Shown here in pieces: positions 3,203 to 54,929 of a stretch of DNA of 64,000 nucleotides; position 1 is the stretch's first letter, and each line of letters begins with the position of its first letter. The notes under the pieces are model-generated. The model saw only the letters and a program-made list of their open reading frames with translations, was not told the DNA's origin and did not search any database. The position numbers and the translations under genes were made by a program. Source of the DNA: Mobula hypostoma (taxonomy: Eukaryota); the NCBI RefSeq assembly GCF_963921235.1, contig NC_086097.1, positions 36,148,001 to 36,212,000 of the forward strand, given 5' to 3'.

Positions 3203-4239
3203 GAGATTTAACTACAACTGCTTTGATAATTTACCTAATTCAGCCAAGTTAAATGAGAATCACTAATAATCCCTTCAATCAAAATCAATTAAGTTATTCA
3301 ATAACTTATCTCCTTTACTTTGTGTAAGTATGGGATCAATCCTAATTTACACTAAGATTCAGGAGAGAAAATTGCTCCTTTAAATTTGGTGAACAATTAA
3401 TTCACCCCTTAAGGTCAAACTCTACTATTTCAGGAAAGTTTTATGGAGGTGATCTTAAATAGAATGGCTCCTCCCCTCCATCCCTTGCAAAGGTACTAGA
3501 AAGCATAATACTGTTCCACAAGTGAAAACCCTGACAAATATCAGTTTCATGTTACTCTCAGGAGCACAAAGCAATATGATGTGTGTTGCCAGGTGCCCCA
3601 AGATGTTTAGATCTTGTTAAATTGCTGACTGACAGCACATACTAATCCCCTGGTTACTCCATTTTGGTACCAGTTTAACAAACAACAAATGAATCTGTGA
3701 CACTCAGTTGCTGTGATGCTTGCCATGTGTAACACTTCCCTCCAAGGTTATAATGCAGTAATAGACACCAGTCAGCAGTGCAAAGATTTGGTATTTAAGT
3801 AGTTTGCATCTTGACAGGGCTCAAAACTTCTGTCTCCAAATTTCAGCAACTTTCCGAAGTTCCGAACATGTCACATCAATACTTTTCCATGTAGCCTAAG
3901 GGCCCCTTGAATTAGGTCGTCCACGTGGTAATAAGATATTAATAGATAATTTTATGAACCCAGGGATCTACTTGACAGTAAGCTTTTCAACAGTCTAAAA
4001 ACATCTAAGCCATTTGTGGTCTAATTATCCATTTGACAGTCAACATCGGGATCGGGGCCTTTCATCTGGACTGAAAGGGCGATGGCAGACTGGTAATAAT
4101 AAAAACGTGGAGGGAAAGGGTGAGCTAGAGCTGGCGGGCGATAGGTGGAACCAGGTGACGGGGGATGCTGATAGTGGGGTGGGGGAGGAGATAGTGACAA
4201 TGTCTCCAGAAGCTGGGAGGTAATAGGCAGAAGTGTAGG

Positions 4240-5610
4240 AATTACAAAAGGTTGGTTTGCAGGTGCAACAGGTTATCAAGAAGGCAAATGGAATGGTGGG
4301 CTTCGTTGCTAGAGGGATTGAATTTAAGAGCAAAGAGGTTATGCTGTAACCGTACAGGCACACTTGGACTATAGCGTGCAGTTCTGGTCTCTTTACTTCA
4401 GAAAAGATGTGCTGGTTTGAGAGGCAGTGGAGCGGAGGTTTGCCATGTTGATTCCAGTGATGGGAGGGTTAGCCTATAAGGAGACATTGAGTCACCTGGA
4501 ACTGTACTCACTGAATTCAGAATAATAAAAGGGACCTTACAGAAACATAAAATTAAGAGAGAAGCAGAAAATTTGTTTCCACTGGTGTGTGAGACGAAAC
4601 CAGGTGACATAGCCTCGAGGGAACAGATTTAAGATAGCGATGAGTGGAAGCTGGTTTCCCTAGGAAGTTGTGAATCTGGAATTCTCAAAGTTTCAAAGTA
4701 CATTTATTATCAAATAATGTATAATTTATAAAACCTTGAAATCTGCTTGCTTACAGGCAACCACAAAGCAAGAAACCCAAAAAGAACCGATTTTAAAAAG
4801 TAATAAAGGCCTACATCTGATGAGCAGGGAAAGGGGGACAAACACAGATCGTGCAAACAATGGAAGCGAGCAACAACATTCTGAACCAGAATGAGTCCTT
4901 GGATCCAAATCCTGGTGTAGAGCAGCCCGGTGTAGGCCATCAGGGAGCACAGCAGCCGGGGGCAGTCTTCATAGCTTCAGCGCAATGGAGAGAAGAGTAA
5001 ACATCGTGGGAGAACGAGTGAAATTGGTTGTTGCCTCCAATCCTGACACCAGGTCTTTTCAGTCTATCTGGGCCGGCATTCACATTGTCCAAACAGCATG
5101 TTGTACCTCGTACTAGGACCCAGACACTGCTGCCGTGAGAGGCTCCGAGCCTGGACCACGCTGCCCAGTCCAAAACTACTCTCGATTTCTCCAAATTGGC
5201 TTGGTGCCCAGAGCGATCCAACCTCACACCCAGGCCAGTTGTATGGGCATCAAAACTCTGCCTCAGCTTCTCCTCTCCAATTGGCTCACTCCATCTGCAC
5301 TGATTCTGCAACGTACCAACACGGTTCATCTCTCGAATCCGCTACGCCTTCGCTCGCCTCTTCATTGCTTGCAGTGATGATTTACCACAATTTACTTCAG
5401 AAAAGGTGTTATAGTCGAATTCTATGCCCAGATAAGCCGCAGCTACTACCATATTAAAGATATTTACAACACAGATATAGATTTTTGAATAATAGGGGAA
5501 TTAAGGGTTTTGGGGAAAGGGCAGGTAGGTGGAATGGAGTCCGCCATGATCCTATTAAATGGTGGAGCAGGCTCGAAGCCTACTCCTGCTTTTTCTTATG
5601 TTCTAATATT
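4240..5610 (+). mobile_element. CR1 LINE 3' fragment, split by an insertion at about 4686-5452
   Basis: VQQVIKKANGMVGFVARGIEFKSKEVML and LDYSVQFWSL are CR1 RT C-terminal motifs; the CR1 3' region resumes at about 5455 (gatatagatttttgaataataggggaattaaggg...). Confidence 0.7.
4686..5452 (-). mobile_element. Unclassified non-autonomous retroelement with a Rex-like 3' tail
   Basis: Left end aaagtttcaaagtacatttattatcaaa matches the reverse-complement tail of the Rex-like copies (cf. 13403, 38857-38879); no coding motif recognised; interrupts a CR1. Confidence 0.45.
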
Positions 5611-7807: not shown

Positions 7808-7876
7808 GCTAAATTTGGGACGGAGTAAATTGATTGGGTCAAAATTCCCGAAAGAAAGAAAAGACAAACAGCAGAA

Positions 7877-8299
7877 ATGGAGGCTGAGGAAATTATAAAG
7901 GCGCCGACCTTGGAGGCATTAGAGGATGCCAAGAAATTGGAATTGGTAGCTGTGGCCAAACGGTTGAATCTTGCTAAGGGGAAGTCGACAATGAGGAGAG
8001 AGGAGATACACAGAGCTATCGTAGAGCACTATGTATCTAAGGGTGTGTTTCCCCAAGGCAAGCTGGAGGCGGTGTCTATTGAAAAACCTGCCGGAGACGT
8101 GGTACAGGTGCAGCTTGAAAAACTGAGACTCGAGCACGAGTTCCGGGTACGGCAGTTGGAGCGAGAAGAGAAAGAGAGGGACAGACAGTTGGAGCGAGAA
8201 GAGAAGGAGAGAGAGTTAGAAAGGGAAGAGAGAGAGTTAGAAAGGCGGGAGAAAGAGAAACAGTTAGAAAGGCAGGAGAAAGAGAAAGAGTTAGAAAGG

Positions 8300-8333
<34 letters not shown>

Positions 8334-9593
8334 TGGGAGCGAGAGGAGAAACAGAGGGAAAGGGAATTCGAGCTGGAGAAGTTAAAGATAAGGGCAGAGC
8401 AGGGGCTCGTGCTGAACCAAGGTGGAGGGTTCCGGGCGACCCAGGAGGTTAGGCTGGTTCCCCCATTTGACGATACCGACGTGGATCAGTACTTTCTCCA
8501 TTTCGAAAAAGTTGCTTTAAGTCAGGACTGGCCGAGGTATAAGTGGGTTGTTTTGCTTCAGAGTGTACTGAAAGGGAAAGCCCAAGAAGATTACTCAGCT
8601 TTGTCCGCGGAAGATGCCCAGAGGTATGAGGTGGTGAAAGACGCCATCCTCAGGATTTATGATTTGGTCCCGGAGGCATACCGGCAGAGGTTCCGGAATG
8701 CGAGGAAGCAGTGGGACCGCACGTATTTAGAGTTTGCCCGTGAGATGCAGACACATTGTGAGCGTTGGTGCGCCTCGAAGGGGGTAGAGGGGGATTATGA
8801 CAGACTGCTACAGCTGATCTTGATTGAGCAGTTTAAAGGTTGTGTCCCTGAGGGTATGAGACCCTACCTAGATGAGAAAGAGGCAGCCACGTTAGCCGCA
8901 ACTGCTAGGTTAGCGGATGAGTATGCGTTGACGCATAAAATGAAGTTTGCCCCGAGTAAAGGCTACCAGAAGGGTAGTCAGGACGGCGGGGAGAGTCCGC
9001 CGGAAAAGTCAGAAAGTAAGCCGGGGACTAGTGAGAAGGATAAGGTAGACCGGGAGCAGTCTGGTAGGAAGTCTCCTGGGGTCGTCTGTTATAATTGCGG
9101 GAAAGTCGGACACTTTGCGTCCAGGTGCTTTGCCCCAAAAAAAGAGACGGGAAAAGGGAAAACGGCGATTTTGACTGGCTGTATCGAGCTGGTAAATGAA
9201 CCGCTAGGACAGGACAGGTCTTATAAAGTTCAGGAAGGGCGCGAGAAGTTTATCTCGGCCGGATTGGTGTCAGTGAAGGAGGGGTTAAAACCAGTTCCAG
9301 TGCAGATATGGAGAGACACGGGAGCATGTCAGTCACTAATACTGAAGAGTGTATTAGAATTTAGCTCAGAGACCCAGACTGGGGAGGTCAAGGTCAAAGG
9401 TATTGGAGAAGGGACGGAGACAGTCCCTTTGCACCAGGTACACTTACAAAGCAACCTGGTCTCTGGACTAGTCACGATCGGGGTGAGGTCCGAATTACCG
9501 ATGAAAGGCATGGAAGTCTTGCTCGGTAATGACGTCGCCGGGGGATATCGTGTTCCCAGCCGTGAGATTGACAGGTCAGCCTGCCAGCATTGA
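7877..9593 (+). pseudogene. gag-protease: coiled-coil, SCAN-like capsid region, CCHC zinc knuckle, aspartic protease; one frameshift in a (GA)n tract
   Basis: ORF 7877-8452 joins ORF 8409-9593 across the GA run; VPEAYRQRFR...LILIEQFKGCVPEGMRPYL (SCAN-like), CYNCGKVGHFASRC, WRDTGACQSLI, VLLGND. Confidence 0.9.
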
Positions 9594-10920
9594 GGCCCCA
9601 CCCATGGACTCACAGGTTCATCACGGGACCGCGGTAGTAAATTTAGCTGAGACGTTTCTGCCAGCCTTGTACGAGAAGGGGGTAGAAAGTGAAAAGAAGG
9701 AGTGTAGTGAAACAAGAGGCAGTGAGGGAGCTGGGACAGACGTAGCATTAGCCAGGGAAGCATTTGTGCAGACACAGGAGCGAGACGAGGGGCTGATAGT
9801 TTTGGCAGAGACAGCTCTCTCTGACACAGACTTAACAAGGGAACCAGTAGGCTATTGTGTGGAGGAGGAAGTGCTAAGGAAGAAAGGGAAACCAAGTACC
9901 GTACCCGCAGATGAAGAATGGGGGGTGGTGCAAAAGAGTTATGGGGATGAGGTTTTTAACCTGGCCCACAAGGTACCCCCCGGTGGACATTTTGTGGTAC
10001 TGGAGGGAACAGTTGGTGGAATCATGAAAGAGGTTTACTGGCTGCCCAGGAGGAAGGATGTTATTGATTATGATCGACGCGAACTGAGACGGTCACAGGC
10101 TTTTGATATGCTAACAAACCTAGTCGGTGTTAGCGCGGAAATCAATGAAGCTAGGGTCCCCCCGATAAGAGAAAAAAACCATTTTGAAAAGATGAGTATG
10201 GTATCGACCAGATGGGAGAAGGCTATTGTTTTGGCCAGCTCTGCTGATGAGGTCTCTCCCTTAATCCCCGAACAAAGCGACTCTTTAGGAGAAGTAATTA
10301 AATGACTCGCACACGTGTGTTTGATTGTCCCGAGGCGATGCAAAGAACTGGGACGTTGGGTGGTGTCTGTTACATTAGGTCAGTTTAGCGGGCAACATCC
10401 ATATAGAGTGAGTAATTCAGTGACTAAAGGGCTGATGAACACAGAGGTGTGTATTGGCAATTTAATACGGCTGTCTGAAGCCAGCTTGATAGTGAACCTT
10501 GAAAAAAATTAGTTCGGCCACACGAAGGTCACTTACCTGGGAATTGTGGTGACACAGGGGCAGCTGGCAGCGATGCAAGGTACAGTGTAGGCTATCGCTG
10601 ACCTCCCAACCCCGACAGACAAGAGGGCCCTCAGAAGGCTCTTGGAGATGGTGGGGTACTGTAGGAAGTTTTGCAATAACTCTGCGGTCACTACCCCTCC
10701 CCCTCCTACTAAGCCCTTGCGAGAAAAAACTAAGTCGGAATGGGATGACCCTTGTTATTGTGGTCCGGGACAAAACCAAATGAGGGGTTACATTGATCGC
10801 AATTCATCAGTGTTTTTGGCCACTATGAAGTTTGCTAAGTTGGAGCCTGGTCTAAGGGATTATTAATAACACATATAAAAGGAACAGAAAATGTGATTGC
10901 TGACTGTCTGTCAGGTGTTG
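9529..10920 (+). pseudogene. Fragmented pol remnants in the order IN zinc-binding region, RT thumb, RNase H C-terminus
   Basis: SYGDEVFNLAHKVPPGGHF...IMKEVYWLPRRKDVIDY (IN N-terminus); VNLEKN*FGHTKVTYLG...PTDKRALRRLLEMVGYCRKFC (RT); HIKGTENVIADCLS (RH end); no DDE core and no YxDD seen. Confidence 0.8.
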
Positions 10921-50508: not shown

Positions 50509-51785
50509 GCGTGTTGCTGAAGAAATAACTGCCCAAGATGGAGGTAGAGGCAGACATTGGCACTGCATGTAAACAGTCCTTAAATGTGTACCTTAGAAGC
50601 TGAAACCGGCAGGTTTATGGGACTAATGCTCAGAGGTGGATTAGGTAAGGTTGTTCTTTATCACATGGACACATGGACAGACTATCCCCCCCATATCGAA
50701 AATCTTCTGTGATTTTCACACAGGAAATATCTTTTTTTTTTACCTTGGTCAATTAATTGGTTCAGGTGACTTTCAAATCAATAAAAGTAGACTGCATTGG
50801 GCGTTTCCCTGGAATCCAGTGGTTGTTTGTTTAAAATCAATGGATTTGGCAGGAGACAGATTCTTGTCAAATTATCACTTCTGAACCAGGTACTGTTAAA
50901 ACACGTTCCAGTGATCCCCAGAATTTGTGTATTACTTCATTCTGAACTGCATTATCAGCAAACTTTAGATCCACATTTGATTTCTTTCTATGCTGCAAAG
51001 GATAAATAAAGGAAATTTATACTCATCAGATACTGTATGGTGTGAAGCGGTAAACTAAATCCTATAACAATTGGACAACAAAATGTTACCCTAGACCAGT
51101 GACTGAATCAGCACTAAATTATCAAATTTATTCAAAAAAGTAAGCATGCACAATTTGTTGCTTTGGAGATCAGCAAATGTTTTGAGAGAGAAATAAAAAG
51201 ATGGGCAGAGTACCACCTACCATTGTTGTGGTGGACAATGGACAACTTAATTTCGGAGATATTTCCCTCTCTCCCTACAGTTACCAGTGCCATCTCTTCA
51301 AATGTATATGAGTGAGACAGATCAGCTGGTGTGTAGTGTCACAGCAACCTTGCACTCATTGTCAGTGTCATGAAAAACTGTGGGTCAATTTTTTAAGAAA
51401 AATAACCAGATGGCTTGAGTCGCAAAAATAAATTGAGGTGCTTTTATTTACCTCAAAACAAAAACTGGGGAAAAAACTATATATATATATATATAGCCAC
51501 CCTCAGACTAAACACCAAAGAAAACTAACCCCAAAGCCTTGGTAACCTGAGGCTTATAACTGCTAAGCCCCTCCCCCTAGACCAACCAAAAGCTAATCAA
51601 CTCAATTATCTAATTAAAGATGGTATCCTCCACCATCAGCACACTGTTCAGGTTGTTGCTGCCTCGATATGAGACATCTCCATGCAACAGCTCTGTTTCA
51701 GACCCAGTCACTATTGCTGCTGGGGATGAGTGTTTTACTGAGTGCGCCATGTGCTGTCCGTAGTTAGTGATGGGCCTTCGTCACA

Positions 51786-51943
51786 TTACCACCCTCCTCT
51801 CCTGCAGCGGCAATGTTTGACAGTATTGACATGAAGTCCGCTGTAATGTTCTCCTTGCTTGCTTTGTGCCACACACAGAATCTGAAAGGTTGAAGTTCCA
51901 GGTACCACCTGGTCACCCTGGCATCCTGGCCCCTCACTGCATT
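51786..51943 (-). pseudogene. RNase H C-terminus plus PPT (sense orientation of the element)
   Basis: Minus translation NAVRGQDARVTRWYLELQPFRFCVWHKASKENITADFMS...GEEGGN running into the LTR; RH as the last pol domain is the Gmr1 order. Confidence 0.85.
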
Positions 51944-52720
51944 CAGGATCCCTCTAGGCCTCTTTCAGTTCACGGTGATGCCCTTTGGCTTACATGGTGC
52001 CCCAGCCACATTCCAGAGGCTTATGGACAGAGTGCTGCAAGGTTGTGTGGACTGCAGCGCTGCCTATTTGGATGATGTAGTCATTTTTAGCCTGACCTGG
52101 GAGGAACATCTGGAGCAGCTTCGTCGAGTCCTAGGTGCAATCAATGCGGCAAGACTTACACTCAACCTTCAGAAATGTGAGTGGGCCAGGCAGGAAACCC
52201 GGTACCTGGGGTATCAGTTGGGGAGAGGTGAAGTCCGGCCTCAGGTGGATAAAGTTGAGGCCATTCTGAACAGCCCCAGGCCCCGTACCAAGACCCAGGT
52301 CCAGTCTTTTCTTGGCCTAGTGGGCTGGTATCGACAGTTCATCCCTCACTTTTCAACCCTGGCAGCCCCATTGACCAACCTCACCTGCAAGTTGGCCCGT
52401 AATCCTGTGGAATGGAGTGAGGAGTGTGAAAGTGCTTTCCAGGGCCTGAAGGAGAAATTATGCTCTTCCCCTGTGTTACAGAGTCCTGACTTTGAACGCC
52501 GCTTCCTGGTGCGGGTGGATGCCTCAGGTGTAGGCATCGGGGCAGTACTGGCTCAGGGAGAGCCAGGTGAGGAACGTCCTGTGTTTTATCTCAGCAGGAA
52601 ACTTCTGCCCCTGAAACCCGGTACTCCACAATCGAGGAGTGTCTGGCAATCAAGTGGGTGTTGGACAGCCTCAGGTACTACCTTCTTGGGAGGGAGTTTG
52701 ACCTCCAGACGGACCACAGA
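51936..52720 (+). pseudogene. RT palm/thumb plus RNase H N-terminal part, inverted relative to the element
   Basis: TAFRIPLGLFQFTVMPFGLHGAPATFQRLM...AAYLDDVVIFS...FLGLVGWYRQF...VDASGVGIGAVLAQ...YLSRKLLP/ETRYSTIE-ECLAIKWVLDSLRYYLLGREFDLQTDHR. Confidence 0.93.
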
Positions 52721-52744
52721 ATCCAGGTCATGGATCTGTGGTCC

Positions 52745-52788
52745 GTCTGGTAAACAGGAGATCCTGGGTTCGAATCCCACCGCTGCCA
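52745..52788 (+). other. tRNA 3'-half copy forming an extended PBS (tRNA-Thr body plus tRNA-Leu acceptor end)
   Basis: GTAAACAGGAGATCCTGGGTTCGAATCCCA matches vertebrate tRNA-Thr and TGGGTTCGAATCCCACCGCTGCCA matches the tRNA-Leu(AAG/TAG) 3' end (sequences recalled from memory). Confidence 0.75.
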
Positions 52789-54929
52789 CAATATGTCACA
52801 AAAAACTGTGGGTCAATTGTTTAAGAAAAATAACCAGATGGTTTGAGTCGCAAAAATAAATTGAGGTGCTTTTATTTACTTCAAAACAAGACAAAAACTG
52901 GGAAAGATATATATATAGCCACCCTCAGACTAAACATCAAAGAAAAACTAACCCCAAAGCCTTGGTAACCTGAGGCTTATAACTGCTAAGCCCCTCCCCC
53001 TAGACCAACCAAAAGCTAATTAACTCAATTATCCAATTAAAGATGGTATCCTCCACCATCAGCACACTGTGCAGGTTGTTGCTGCCTCTATTTGAGACAT
53101 CTCCATGCAACAGCTCTGTTTCAGACCCAGTCACTATTACTGCTGGGGATGAGTGTTTTACCCAGTGCGCCATGTGCTGTCCGTAGTTAGTGACGGGCCT
53201 TCGTCACAGTCAGCAAGACCAAAGAATTGATTGTGGACTTCAAGATGAGGAAAATTGGGAGAACATCTACCATTCTTCATGGAAGAATCAACCTTGGAAA
53301 GAGTGGGCAGGTTCACATTTTTGGGTGTCAGTGTCTTGGAGGATCTATTCTGGGCCCAACACATTGATGCGCTCACAGAGATGTGCAAATTAAAGGCTCT
53401 ACTTTGTTAGGAGCTTGGGGAGATTTAGTATGTCACCAAAGACTCTTTTGTACTTCTATAGATGTTTGGTGGTTTGCATCGCAACCTGGCATGCTGAGTC
53501 TACAGCCTTTTTACTAGCTCCACCATGGGCACAACCATTTCCACCAATGCAGACGTTTTCACAAAGCAGTGCCTCAAGAAGTTGTCATCCATCATTAAGG
53601 ACCATCACAATCTGGGACACATCCTCCTCACATTGCTGCAGTCAGGGAGGAAGATCCTTACATGGACAGCAGGAGCCCTGGCTAACTGTTGAGAGACATT
53701 TGATTCCTTGAAGGCAAGAGCTCAGTCATTTCTTGTCATCCAGTTCATTATAACCTCTAGACATAAGAAATAACAGACAGACAATCTATCTCTTTATTTT
53801 CTCTCTCTTTAAACCAGCAGTAGAGATGTGCAATATATGGGGAACTAAACAGCCTGACTAAAGCAATTTATGTATCTGCCCCTCTGACAGGTTATATGCT
53901 GTATAGGGGAAATTGATAGACTCCGGTTCAAAACATCCTCCCTGAAGCTGCATTAGTGTATTATTAGTATGTTGCAACTTTCATAAAGAGTTTGCATCTT
54001 GCTCAGTAAACACTCAATAAACAGCCCTGTGCTGAATATTATAAAACCTTGCCAACTCTACGGGGTGAGATTATTGCACTTCTAAACATTAATGTGTAGA
54101 TGTCAATGTTAAAGGAAGCAGAACAGTAATAATCTGAGTAATTGAAGAAATAAATTTAGACTGATGGTAGTTTAGGTAACATGAGAGAAATGCTTTGAAA
54201 CCCTCATATTTGGTGTGTTTATAATATATACAGGGCCAATATATTCACCTGCTGTTTGCAAATAAGTTCTTCCCAGAGGGCTAGCTAAAACACCTTGCAA
54301 CATTTAACTTGCAAGAAAAAAGCACATTGGTCTTTGTAGCTTGTTAATAGTCTTTGCCAACAAAAAAGAAAATCATTTGAAAAAGGCAACACAAAATAAT
54401 TATAAGACATGATTGCAAAGTCTCAGATCTGTCAGCCTCTTTTTCCTGACAACTAATGTGAACCTAATGAAATAAACCTTTGCAATGCCCAATTCTGCCC
54501 TATCCTACATTATTTGGAACTCAGAGCCTGAAATGGAGTAGCCTCGGTAGAACAAGGACTCGTTGCACAAGTCTGTTGCACTCTTTTGCTATTTAAAAGA
54601 ATACACCATTGATGGTGGTAGACCTTGGTGGGACAATTTCAGAGTTGACAGAAGGTTTTCAAAATCCACATTGTACTACAACTAACAGAATGCTCACTAC
54701 ACCACTTAGCTGTGGGAAACTCCTGGAATGAGAGACTCAGGAATGATGCTGCCACTAACACGCCACATCAGTCGAGGTCATTTTGGATGTGGCTTGTGTA
54801 CCCTGGAGTCTATTCCCACATAGGCTTCAGAGATACCAGATCCCATATGGACCCCAGTAGCACAGGCTCTGGTTTCCCAAGTCTGTCTTCACTGACATCT
54901 CAGAACATTTGACCAAATCTCTAACCTTG

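Follow-up and report, generated by a model that had tools for sequence, protein, structure and literature searches.

The window considered here, i.e., the whole analysed stretch of 64,000 nucleotides (nt), corresponds to G000:C1:36148001-36212000 of a 3.48-Gb genome represented by 200 contigs, and all the coordinates given below are positions within this window. At 51366-53208, it contains a short element with two long terminal repeats (LTRs), the coding sense of which is the minus strand and the interior of which is mostly occupied by a piece of the pol gene in the inverted orientation. DNA derived from transfer RNA (tRNA) lies immediately behind the primer-binding site (PBS) of this element. 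In our opinion, such a structure was probably formed when a single round of reverse transcription went wrong through failure of the second-strand transfer and integrase then inserted the product. The parts of the element and its borders are listed below; the ruler is the interior, about 4.5 kb in length, of a long natural copy of the same family, used as three separate pieces, and RT means reverse transcriptase.

51361-51365, no strand assigned: left copy of the target-site duplication (TSD), GTCAG, the same 5-mer being present on both sides
51366-51785, minus strand: 3' LTR, direct repeat with 52794-53208 (17/409 substitutions)
51786-51802, minus strand: polypurine tract (PPT), a purine run abutting the LTR and common to other copies
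51803-51923, minus strand: coding end of the RNase H C-terminus, by a sense match to ruler ~4385-4515 and by translation
51924-52720, plus strand: inverted pol piece, antisense to the element, comprising the C-terminal RT half with YLDD and the greater part of RNase H; 94% identical to ruler 3561-4361, with Pfam matches to RVT_1 and RT_RNaseH
52721-52750, minus strand: 30-nt RNase H piece in the element sense, ruler 4346-4375, 16 nt of which duplicate the inverted piece and form a fold-back junction
52745-52773, minus strand: reverse copy of tRNA-Thr(AGT) from the T-loop to the anticodon loop, by a match to the tRNA-Thr(AGT) gene L124; the last 6 nt are common with the RNase H piece
52774-52791, minus strand: PBS of the tRNA-Leu(TAG/AAG) type with one mismatch (17/18 match to the tRNA-Leu genes L125-L127)
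52794-53208, minus strand: 5' LTR with a TATA-like run and AATAAA, direct repeat with 51366-51785
53209-53213, no strand assigned: right copy of the TSD, GTCAG

When read in the element sense, the 5' LTR is followed by the 18-nt PBS, the tRNA-derived DNA, sense RNase H (ruler 4346-4375) and antisense pol (4361 down to 3561), and then by the sense end of RNase H (from ~4372-4385), the PPT and the 3' LTR. Both LTRs end in TG...CA; they differ by 17 substitutions and 3 gap events over 409 aligned bases (Kimura two-parameter distance, K2P, 0.043) and are mutually the closest among the 53 LTR starts compared. In the minus-strand sense, TATATA is located at LTR positions 292-296 and AATAAA at 333. 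The tRNA-Leu PBS is located 2 nt inside of the right LTR, and the purine tract stands directly beside the left one, the C-terminus of RNase H reading into this tract. All the cis signals are therefore on the minus strand, where the initial annotation of this DNA had placed them, and its statement that gag, protease and integrase are absent agrees with the comparison with the family ruler, by which no such sequence maps inside the element; the leader and gag region is missing. The conclusion that integrase carried out the insertion was also borne out, by the two LTRs with an exact 5-bp TSD. Beyond the TSD, the 60 bp next to the element on the left are high-copy in the genome, only one weak adjacent pair was found in the search for continuity of an interrupted repeat across the TSD, and Pfam gave no match on the right flank.

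The annotation had further assigned an RT-RNase H gene to the plus strand at 51936-52720. The antisense orientation, the RVT_1 and RT_RNaseH matches and YLDD were found indeed, but the piece extends over 51924-52720 (797 bp) and comprises only the C-terminal half of RT together with a frameshifted RNase H instead of a whole gene. Its RVT_1 match (E 1e-18) covers profile positions 90-205 only, and the break in the RNase H frame is near 52612. The internal part of the element amounts to 1008 bp, more than 900 bp of which are pol-derived. The sense RNase H piece forms a perfect 16-bp inverted repeat (I2) with 52705-52720, and the tip of the hairpin was made more self-complementary by two substitutions absent from the other copies aligned. 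Both this 30-nt piece (52721-52750) and the tRNA-Thr segment (52745-52773) had been overlooked.

Chimeric tRNA-derived DNA and uniqueness of the junctions

The tRNA sequence continues in register past the 18-nt PBS and stands at a deletion junction. It is chimeric: nt 1-27 of the complementary DNA (cDNA) agree with the tRNA-Leu genes (L125-L127) and nt 13-47 with the tRNA-Thr(AGT) gene L124, 15 nt of the chimera being common to both tRNAs. The PBS is of the Leu type at all three positions distinguishing Leu from Thr. Over nt 13-47, the sole difference from L124 is the first anticodon base, read as G, which we take to be the expected reading of inosine-34, and the same G is present in two other genomic matches to tRNA-Thr(AGT). 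The sequences at G000:C1:10965753 and C2:241486045 are tRNA-Thr(AGT)-like 3' halves with G at this base and could be other reverse copies of an inosine-bearing tRNA. No tRNA gene was predicted in the window by ARAGORN, and none of the 10 weak Rfam matches obtained for it, including a tRNA match of 16.1 bits at 52732-52788, reached the gathering score. The Leu/Thr chimera, 16 bases present both in sense and antisense and the substitutions at the hairpin tip argue for templated synthesis.

Search of the 3.48-Gb genome at ≤3 mismatches gave only this locus for the left junction (40-mer) and only this locus for the tRNA/RNase H junction (30-mer). No sister to this copy appeared in a tree of 38 natural RT-RNase H fragments, which is star-like and of low power, 3/35 inner branches being well supported. 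Because the junctions are single-locus and the tree contains no sister, the rearranged element is not a family in this assembly. It is a single, dead-on-arrival copy with no sign of function.

These data bear on the central proposal of the initial annotation, namely a mobilised defective-interfering family similar to terminal-repeat retrotransposons in miniature (TRIMs), whose transcript would be antisense to the pol RNA of a helper. Two LTRs, PBS, PPT and TSD, all of them TRIM features, are indeed kept, the 797 antisense nt are 94% identical to the family pol, and the pair L018/L021 provides a weak hint of multiplying leaderless derivatives. Nevertheless, the proposal is highly improbable. 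The interior is pol-derived and not short non-coding DNA, and the junction search for copies with other flanks, which the annotation itself had named as the test for a family, gave one match per junction for two junctions and so no sign of amplification. In addition, the leader and gag region is lacking, the LTRs are 4.2% apart and hence not young, and the three copies with a common PBS-to-337 antisense junction, considered as one possible lineage, did not group in the star-like tree of low power.

Mis-assembly of repeat reads is scarcely credible. It could be suspected in a high-copy family (190 candidates) for a structure that is read from the assembly, but the exact TSD, the mutually closest LTRs, the Leu/Thr chimera in the PBS register and many distinct junctions of the same type across contigs speak against it.

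Parent family and census of its PBS sites

Judging from domain content and order, the parent is a Gmr1-like Ty3/Gypsy family with the arrangement SCAN-PR-IN-RT-RH (PR, protease; IN, integrase; RH, RNase H). The original description of Gmr1 is said to be that of Goodwin and Poulter in 2002. In natural copies, SCAN, zinc knuckle, protease, integrase, RT and RNase H were found in order. SCAN was recognized in L059 and L060, with zf-CCHC and aspartyl protease downstream in L060; L079 gave an rve match (E 3e-12), and L081 contains integrase pieces, RT, RNase H and PPT in order. RT and RNase H are of the Gypsy type according to the RVT_1 and RT_RNaseH profile matches. The same domain order is attributed to Gmr1-like elements in the available text of bioRxiv 10.1101/2025.03.03.638093, and since it puts integrase before RT, RNase H ends at the PPT. 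In contrast to family copies with the full domain set, the copy under study has only LTRs, PBS, PPT and RT-RNase H pieces, mostly inverted. Its internal sequence used as a query gave 190 candidates, and among the 40 of these that were scored, 39 other copies are 90-95% identical to the inverted piece. At the other 29 loci retrieved, RT-RNase H continues colinearly into the PPT and the 3' LTR.

Several variants were noted in this family. L078, L080-L082, L084, L087 and L088 have RT-RH-PPT-3' LTR with no 5' LTR within 7 kb, and several of them begin near one point upstream of RT. A common deletion of ~145 bp (ruler 343-488) in L047, L048, L065, L071, L112, L115, L119 and L120 defines a subfamily variant, and the antisense piece of L095 has a template of this deletion type. 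The window itself also contains, at 7829-10305 of the plus strand, an LTR-retroelement remnant of a different family with SCAN and zinc-knuckle gag (Pfam) and a protease-like stretch.

The census pattern, LTR end plus PBS with ≤2 mismatches, was found at 65 sites, all of which were examined, 36 with ~1.5 kb downstream and 29 with ~370 nt. Exclusion of 13/65 sites belonging to other families with the same primer left 52, including two uncertain ones (L097 and L112). A normal leader follows the PBS at 26 of them, tRNA is read on at 10, and there is a break at the PBS end at 14 and within 16 nt of the PBS end at 2. The first foreign piece at the 26 broken sites is antisense in 13 cases, sense in 7 and unmapped in 6, our copy being counted among the 13 after its 30 sense bases. 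The sites are partly non-independent, as L045 and L062 are two ends of one element and L056 provides two sites. By eye, 12/13 sites of other families with the same primer appear to keep their own leader (Fisher p 0.0097 for a small and mixed sample). Accidents that place antisense pieces behind the PBS recur across the family (13/52 sites) and are nothing special to this copy, which is one example of a class forming about half of the family's PBS-bearing sites; the value of 50% broken sites is not an error rate, as short dead copies may be preferentially kept.

The order LTR, PBS, antisense piece, sense end, PPT, LTR and TSD was established for three other complete copies, with different junctions each time. 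L008/L070 and L054/L016 have this architecture with an exact TSD; L069/L130 has it with one mismatch in the TSD, a tRNA read-through, ~1.56 kb of antisense sequence and a return at 4410. The far ends of L072 and L055 were not found, and L077 has no TSD. The return point was mapped for eight antisense copies, and in six of them the inverted piece is located upstream of this point.

The latter position is also that expected for an in-place inversion, and microhomology at the junctions resembles that left by chromosomal repair. One may therefore suppose that a normal copy underwent inversion and deletion by microhomology-mediated repair after its integration. We consider this quite improbable, because repair leaves unexplained both tRNA cDNA exactly in the PBS register, here and at 9 other sites, and the 14 breaks at the PBS end, and because 16 nt present twice require synthesis. 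The exact TSD and the tRNA-derived DNA behind the PBS, which could hardly be produced after insertion, support the assumption of the initial annotation that the rearrangement is older than integration. An inversion made cleanly between a pair of natural inverted repeats was discarded as well, since the natural RT and RNase H sites have only short imperfect homology.

The nine tRNA-Leu read-throughs end at cDNA nt 47 in five cases (4/9 by the automatic rule), at nt 46 and nt 43 in one case each and further in two. Position 47 is one base short of G37, which in tRNA-Leu is presumably 1-methylguanosine (m1G). The microhomology test covered 22/26 broken sites and found an acceptor for 18 and none for this copy, L067, L097 and L101. 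Exact microhomology of at least 4 nt was present at 12/18 mappable junctions vs. 0.6-0.8% of 6008 random positions.

Other unusual structures were met at the PBS sites. L062 and L045 (G000:C5:106183739-106185730) constitute one element with two facing LTR-PBS units around ~2 kb of leader, gag and part of pol and with a purine tract ahead of the far LTR; a similar facing pair in L055 surrounds 337 nt of leader/gag. In L056 (1507-1588) and L104, LTR-PBS is joined via microhomology to the inverted first 63 nt of the LTR, so that the insertion seemingly terminates in a U3 end on the junction side; this junction is the same at both loci. L063/L010/L006 (G000:C5:180059393-180064400) has three alternating RT-RH-LTR arms, the last two of which form a ~1.85-kb palindrome, 98% identical where compared, with a TA microsatellite at its centre, and may be a source of hairpin RNA. 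A common deletion from the PBS to ruler 1494 with 8-nt microhomology was found in L102/L018, L085/L021 and L079/L012; L018 and L021 group at 98/91, have different 3' flanks and are 94.6% alike overall, weakly hinting at a multiplying leaderless derivative. In L067, L101 and L097, LTR-PBS and the tRNA-Leu read-through are followed by non-element sequence, so that strong-stop DNA may have been captured at a break.

Failure of second-strand transfer as a probable origin

The course of events that we regard as probable begins with a stall of minus-strand synthesis in the RNase H region, due to which no copy of the PBS would be available for the second-strand transfer. Plus-strand strong-stop DNA, consisting of the LTR and the PBS copied from the tRNA-Leu primer, would then have overrun, switched to tRNA-Thr(AGT) via the 15 common nt and copied this tRNA up to the anticodon loop, giving the chimera observed. 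Its 3' end would have reached the minus strand via the 6-nt microhomology and been extended by 30 nt, in accordance with the junction present in the element. A further switch would have led to a template of pol sense, for which the genomic RNA not yet copied at the stall is the simplest candidate, and the 797 nt now found in antisense would have been copied backwards from this template. The antisense piece begins 15 nt beyond the landing point, and this distance presumably approximates the length of RNA left by RNase H behind a stalled polymerase. Short imperfect homology close to the end of RNase H would have led the growing strand back to the minus strand, after which both strands would have been finished. 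Integrase would have inserted the product with the 5-bp duplication seen at the locus, and the single copy would later have decayed. The three RNase H-side junctions of this copy are within ~40 nt of the ruler (4346, 4361/4375 and ~4372-4385).

Failed second-strand transfer in one round is supported by tRNA-derived DNA immediately behind the PBS, the exact TSD, LTRs that are mutually closest and the unique junctions. The breaks of this class in relatives (26/52 sites), the stops of the tRNA-Leu read-throughs, the microhomology and the three complete copies of like architecture point the same way, as does the read-through with deletion described for HIV-1. Several points weigh against it. The G at the first anticodon base is inside the 6-nt microhomology with RNase H, so it may originate from RNase H and is no proof of inosine. 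The median microhomology is below 4 nt at 6/18 junctions, and L054 and L063, two of the eight antisense copies whose return was mapped, have inverted pieces that overlap the return point, which a simple stall does not predict. Moreover, the switch order and the RNA template are deduced from the product, and the junctions are read from the assembly. Finally, a PBS of the Leu type with an extension of the Thr type is possible as a result of two rounds.

The two-round variant, which appears unlikely, starts from a parent copy with an 800-bp inverted duplication formed by fold-back in RNase H. On the RNA of this parent, the minus strand would have stalled just past the hairpin tip and joined over-extended strong-stop DNA, which implies that the inversion was transcribed and moved at least once. 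A second priming round is compatible with the Leu PBS and Thr extension, the deletion end is only 30 nt from the fold-back tip, and long inverted duplications do occur in copies L006/L010/L063 and L077. However, neither a second left junction at ≤3 mismatches nor a sister in the tree was revealed, and L069, L070, L072 and L095 pass from the PBS or tRNA directly to antisense sequence with no hairpin. The possibility that the nascent plus strand folded back on itself was also considered and rejected: after the hairpin, the sequence enters upstream RNase H and not tRNA again.

Significance and comparison with known systems

Taken as the product of failed second-strand transfer, the element is valuable as a detailed fossil of faulty reverse transcription, in which four template switches, including the capture of a second tRNA, are kept between two LTRs. 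The family count suggests that such failure, known from rare HIV proviruses, can be a major source of defective LTR copies, often inverted, in a vertebrate germline, and it would thus be a route to short non-autonomous elements and antisense retroelement copies. This idea is testable genome-wide from the 60 bases behind every PBS. A bolder extension, to which we give a low probability, is that frequent failures landing on sense RNA let ordinary replication seed LTR-driven antisense copies (13/52). These would act as a built-in source of small interfering RNA (siRNA) or PIWI-interacting RNA (piRNA) silencing the family and would be an LTR counterpart of twin priming, and the tRNA tails would preserve a record of how tRNAs were modified in the germline (stops before G37, inosine as G) and of which ones were packaged.

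In LINE-1 twin priming, one round of reverse transcription leads to a 5'-deleted and 5'-inverted insertion with TSD, two target-DNA ends acting as primers. In our case, the role of the second primer would fall to strong-stop DNA, with integrase carrying out the insertion. Errors of strand transfer were reportedly the subject of older retrovirus work by Pulsinelli and Temin. In the literature searched, where older virology is poorly covered, neither inversions linked to the PBS nor the capture of a second tRNA were found described for Gypsy elements, and this does not imply their absence from print.

Helenus and Ajax TRIMs are described in the available part of PMC10886601 as amplified non-coding families with tRNA-like or small-RNA sequence inside the LTRs. 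The present element resembles them in its short length, two LTRs, PBS, PPT, 5-bp TSD and tRNA-like sequence; unlike them, it is single-copy, contains pol sequence in its interior and has its tRNA-derived segment behind the PBS. Internal inversions with or without deletion were reported for two HIV-1 proviruses, 1.3% for each class, with no mechanism in the accessible portion of the text (PMC9278108). Those proviruses are likewise integrated copies with inverted internal segments; here, such segments occur at 13/52 sites and are PBS-linked.

A close parallel is provided by Hardy et al. 2025 (PMC12657518), who, according to the portion of the article available, found HIV-1 proviruses, 44 sequences in all, with a deletion junction at which copying had continued 7-54 nt beyond the PBS into tRNA-Lys3, and ascribed this read-through to passing 1-methyladenosine-58 (m1A58) upon aberrant or delayed second-strand transfer. 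As in these proviruses, a primer tRNA was copied past the PBS (~25-38 nt here) up to a deletion junction, and the LTRs are intact. In HIV-1, the copied tRNA is that of the primer and synthesis lands on the minus strand, with no mention of inversion in that portion of the article, whereas the family studied here offers a germline record with 10/52 read-on sites, often antisense landing and, in this copy, a second, non-primer tRNA. Read-through into tRNA with deletion is already known from HIV, and no counterpart of the frequent inversion and of the participation of a second tRNA was found in the literature searched.

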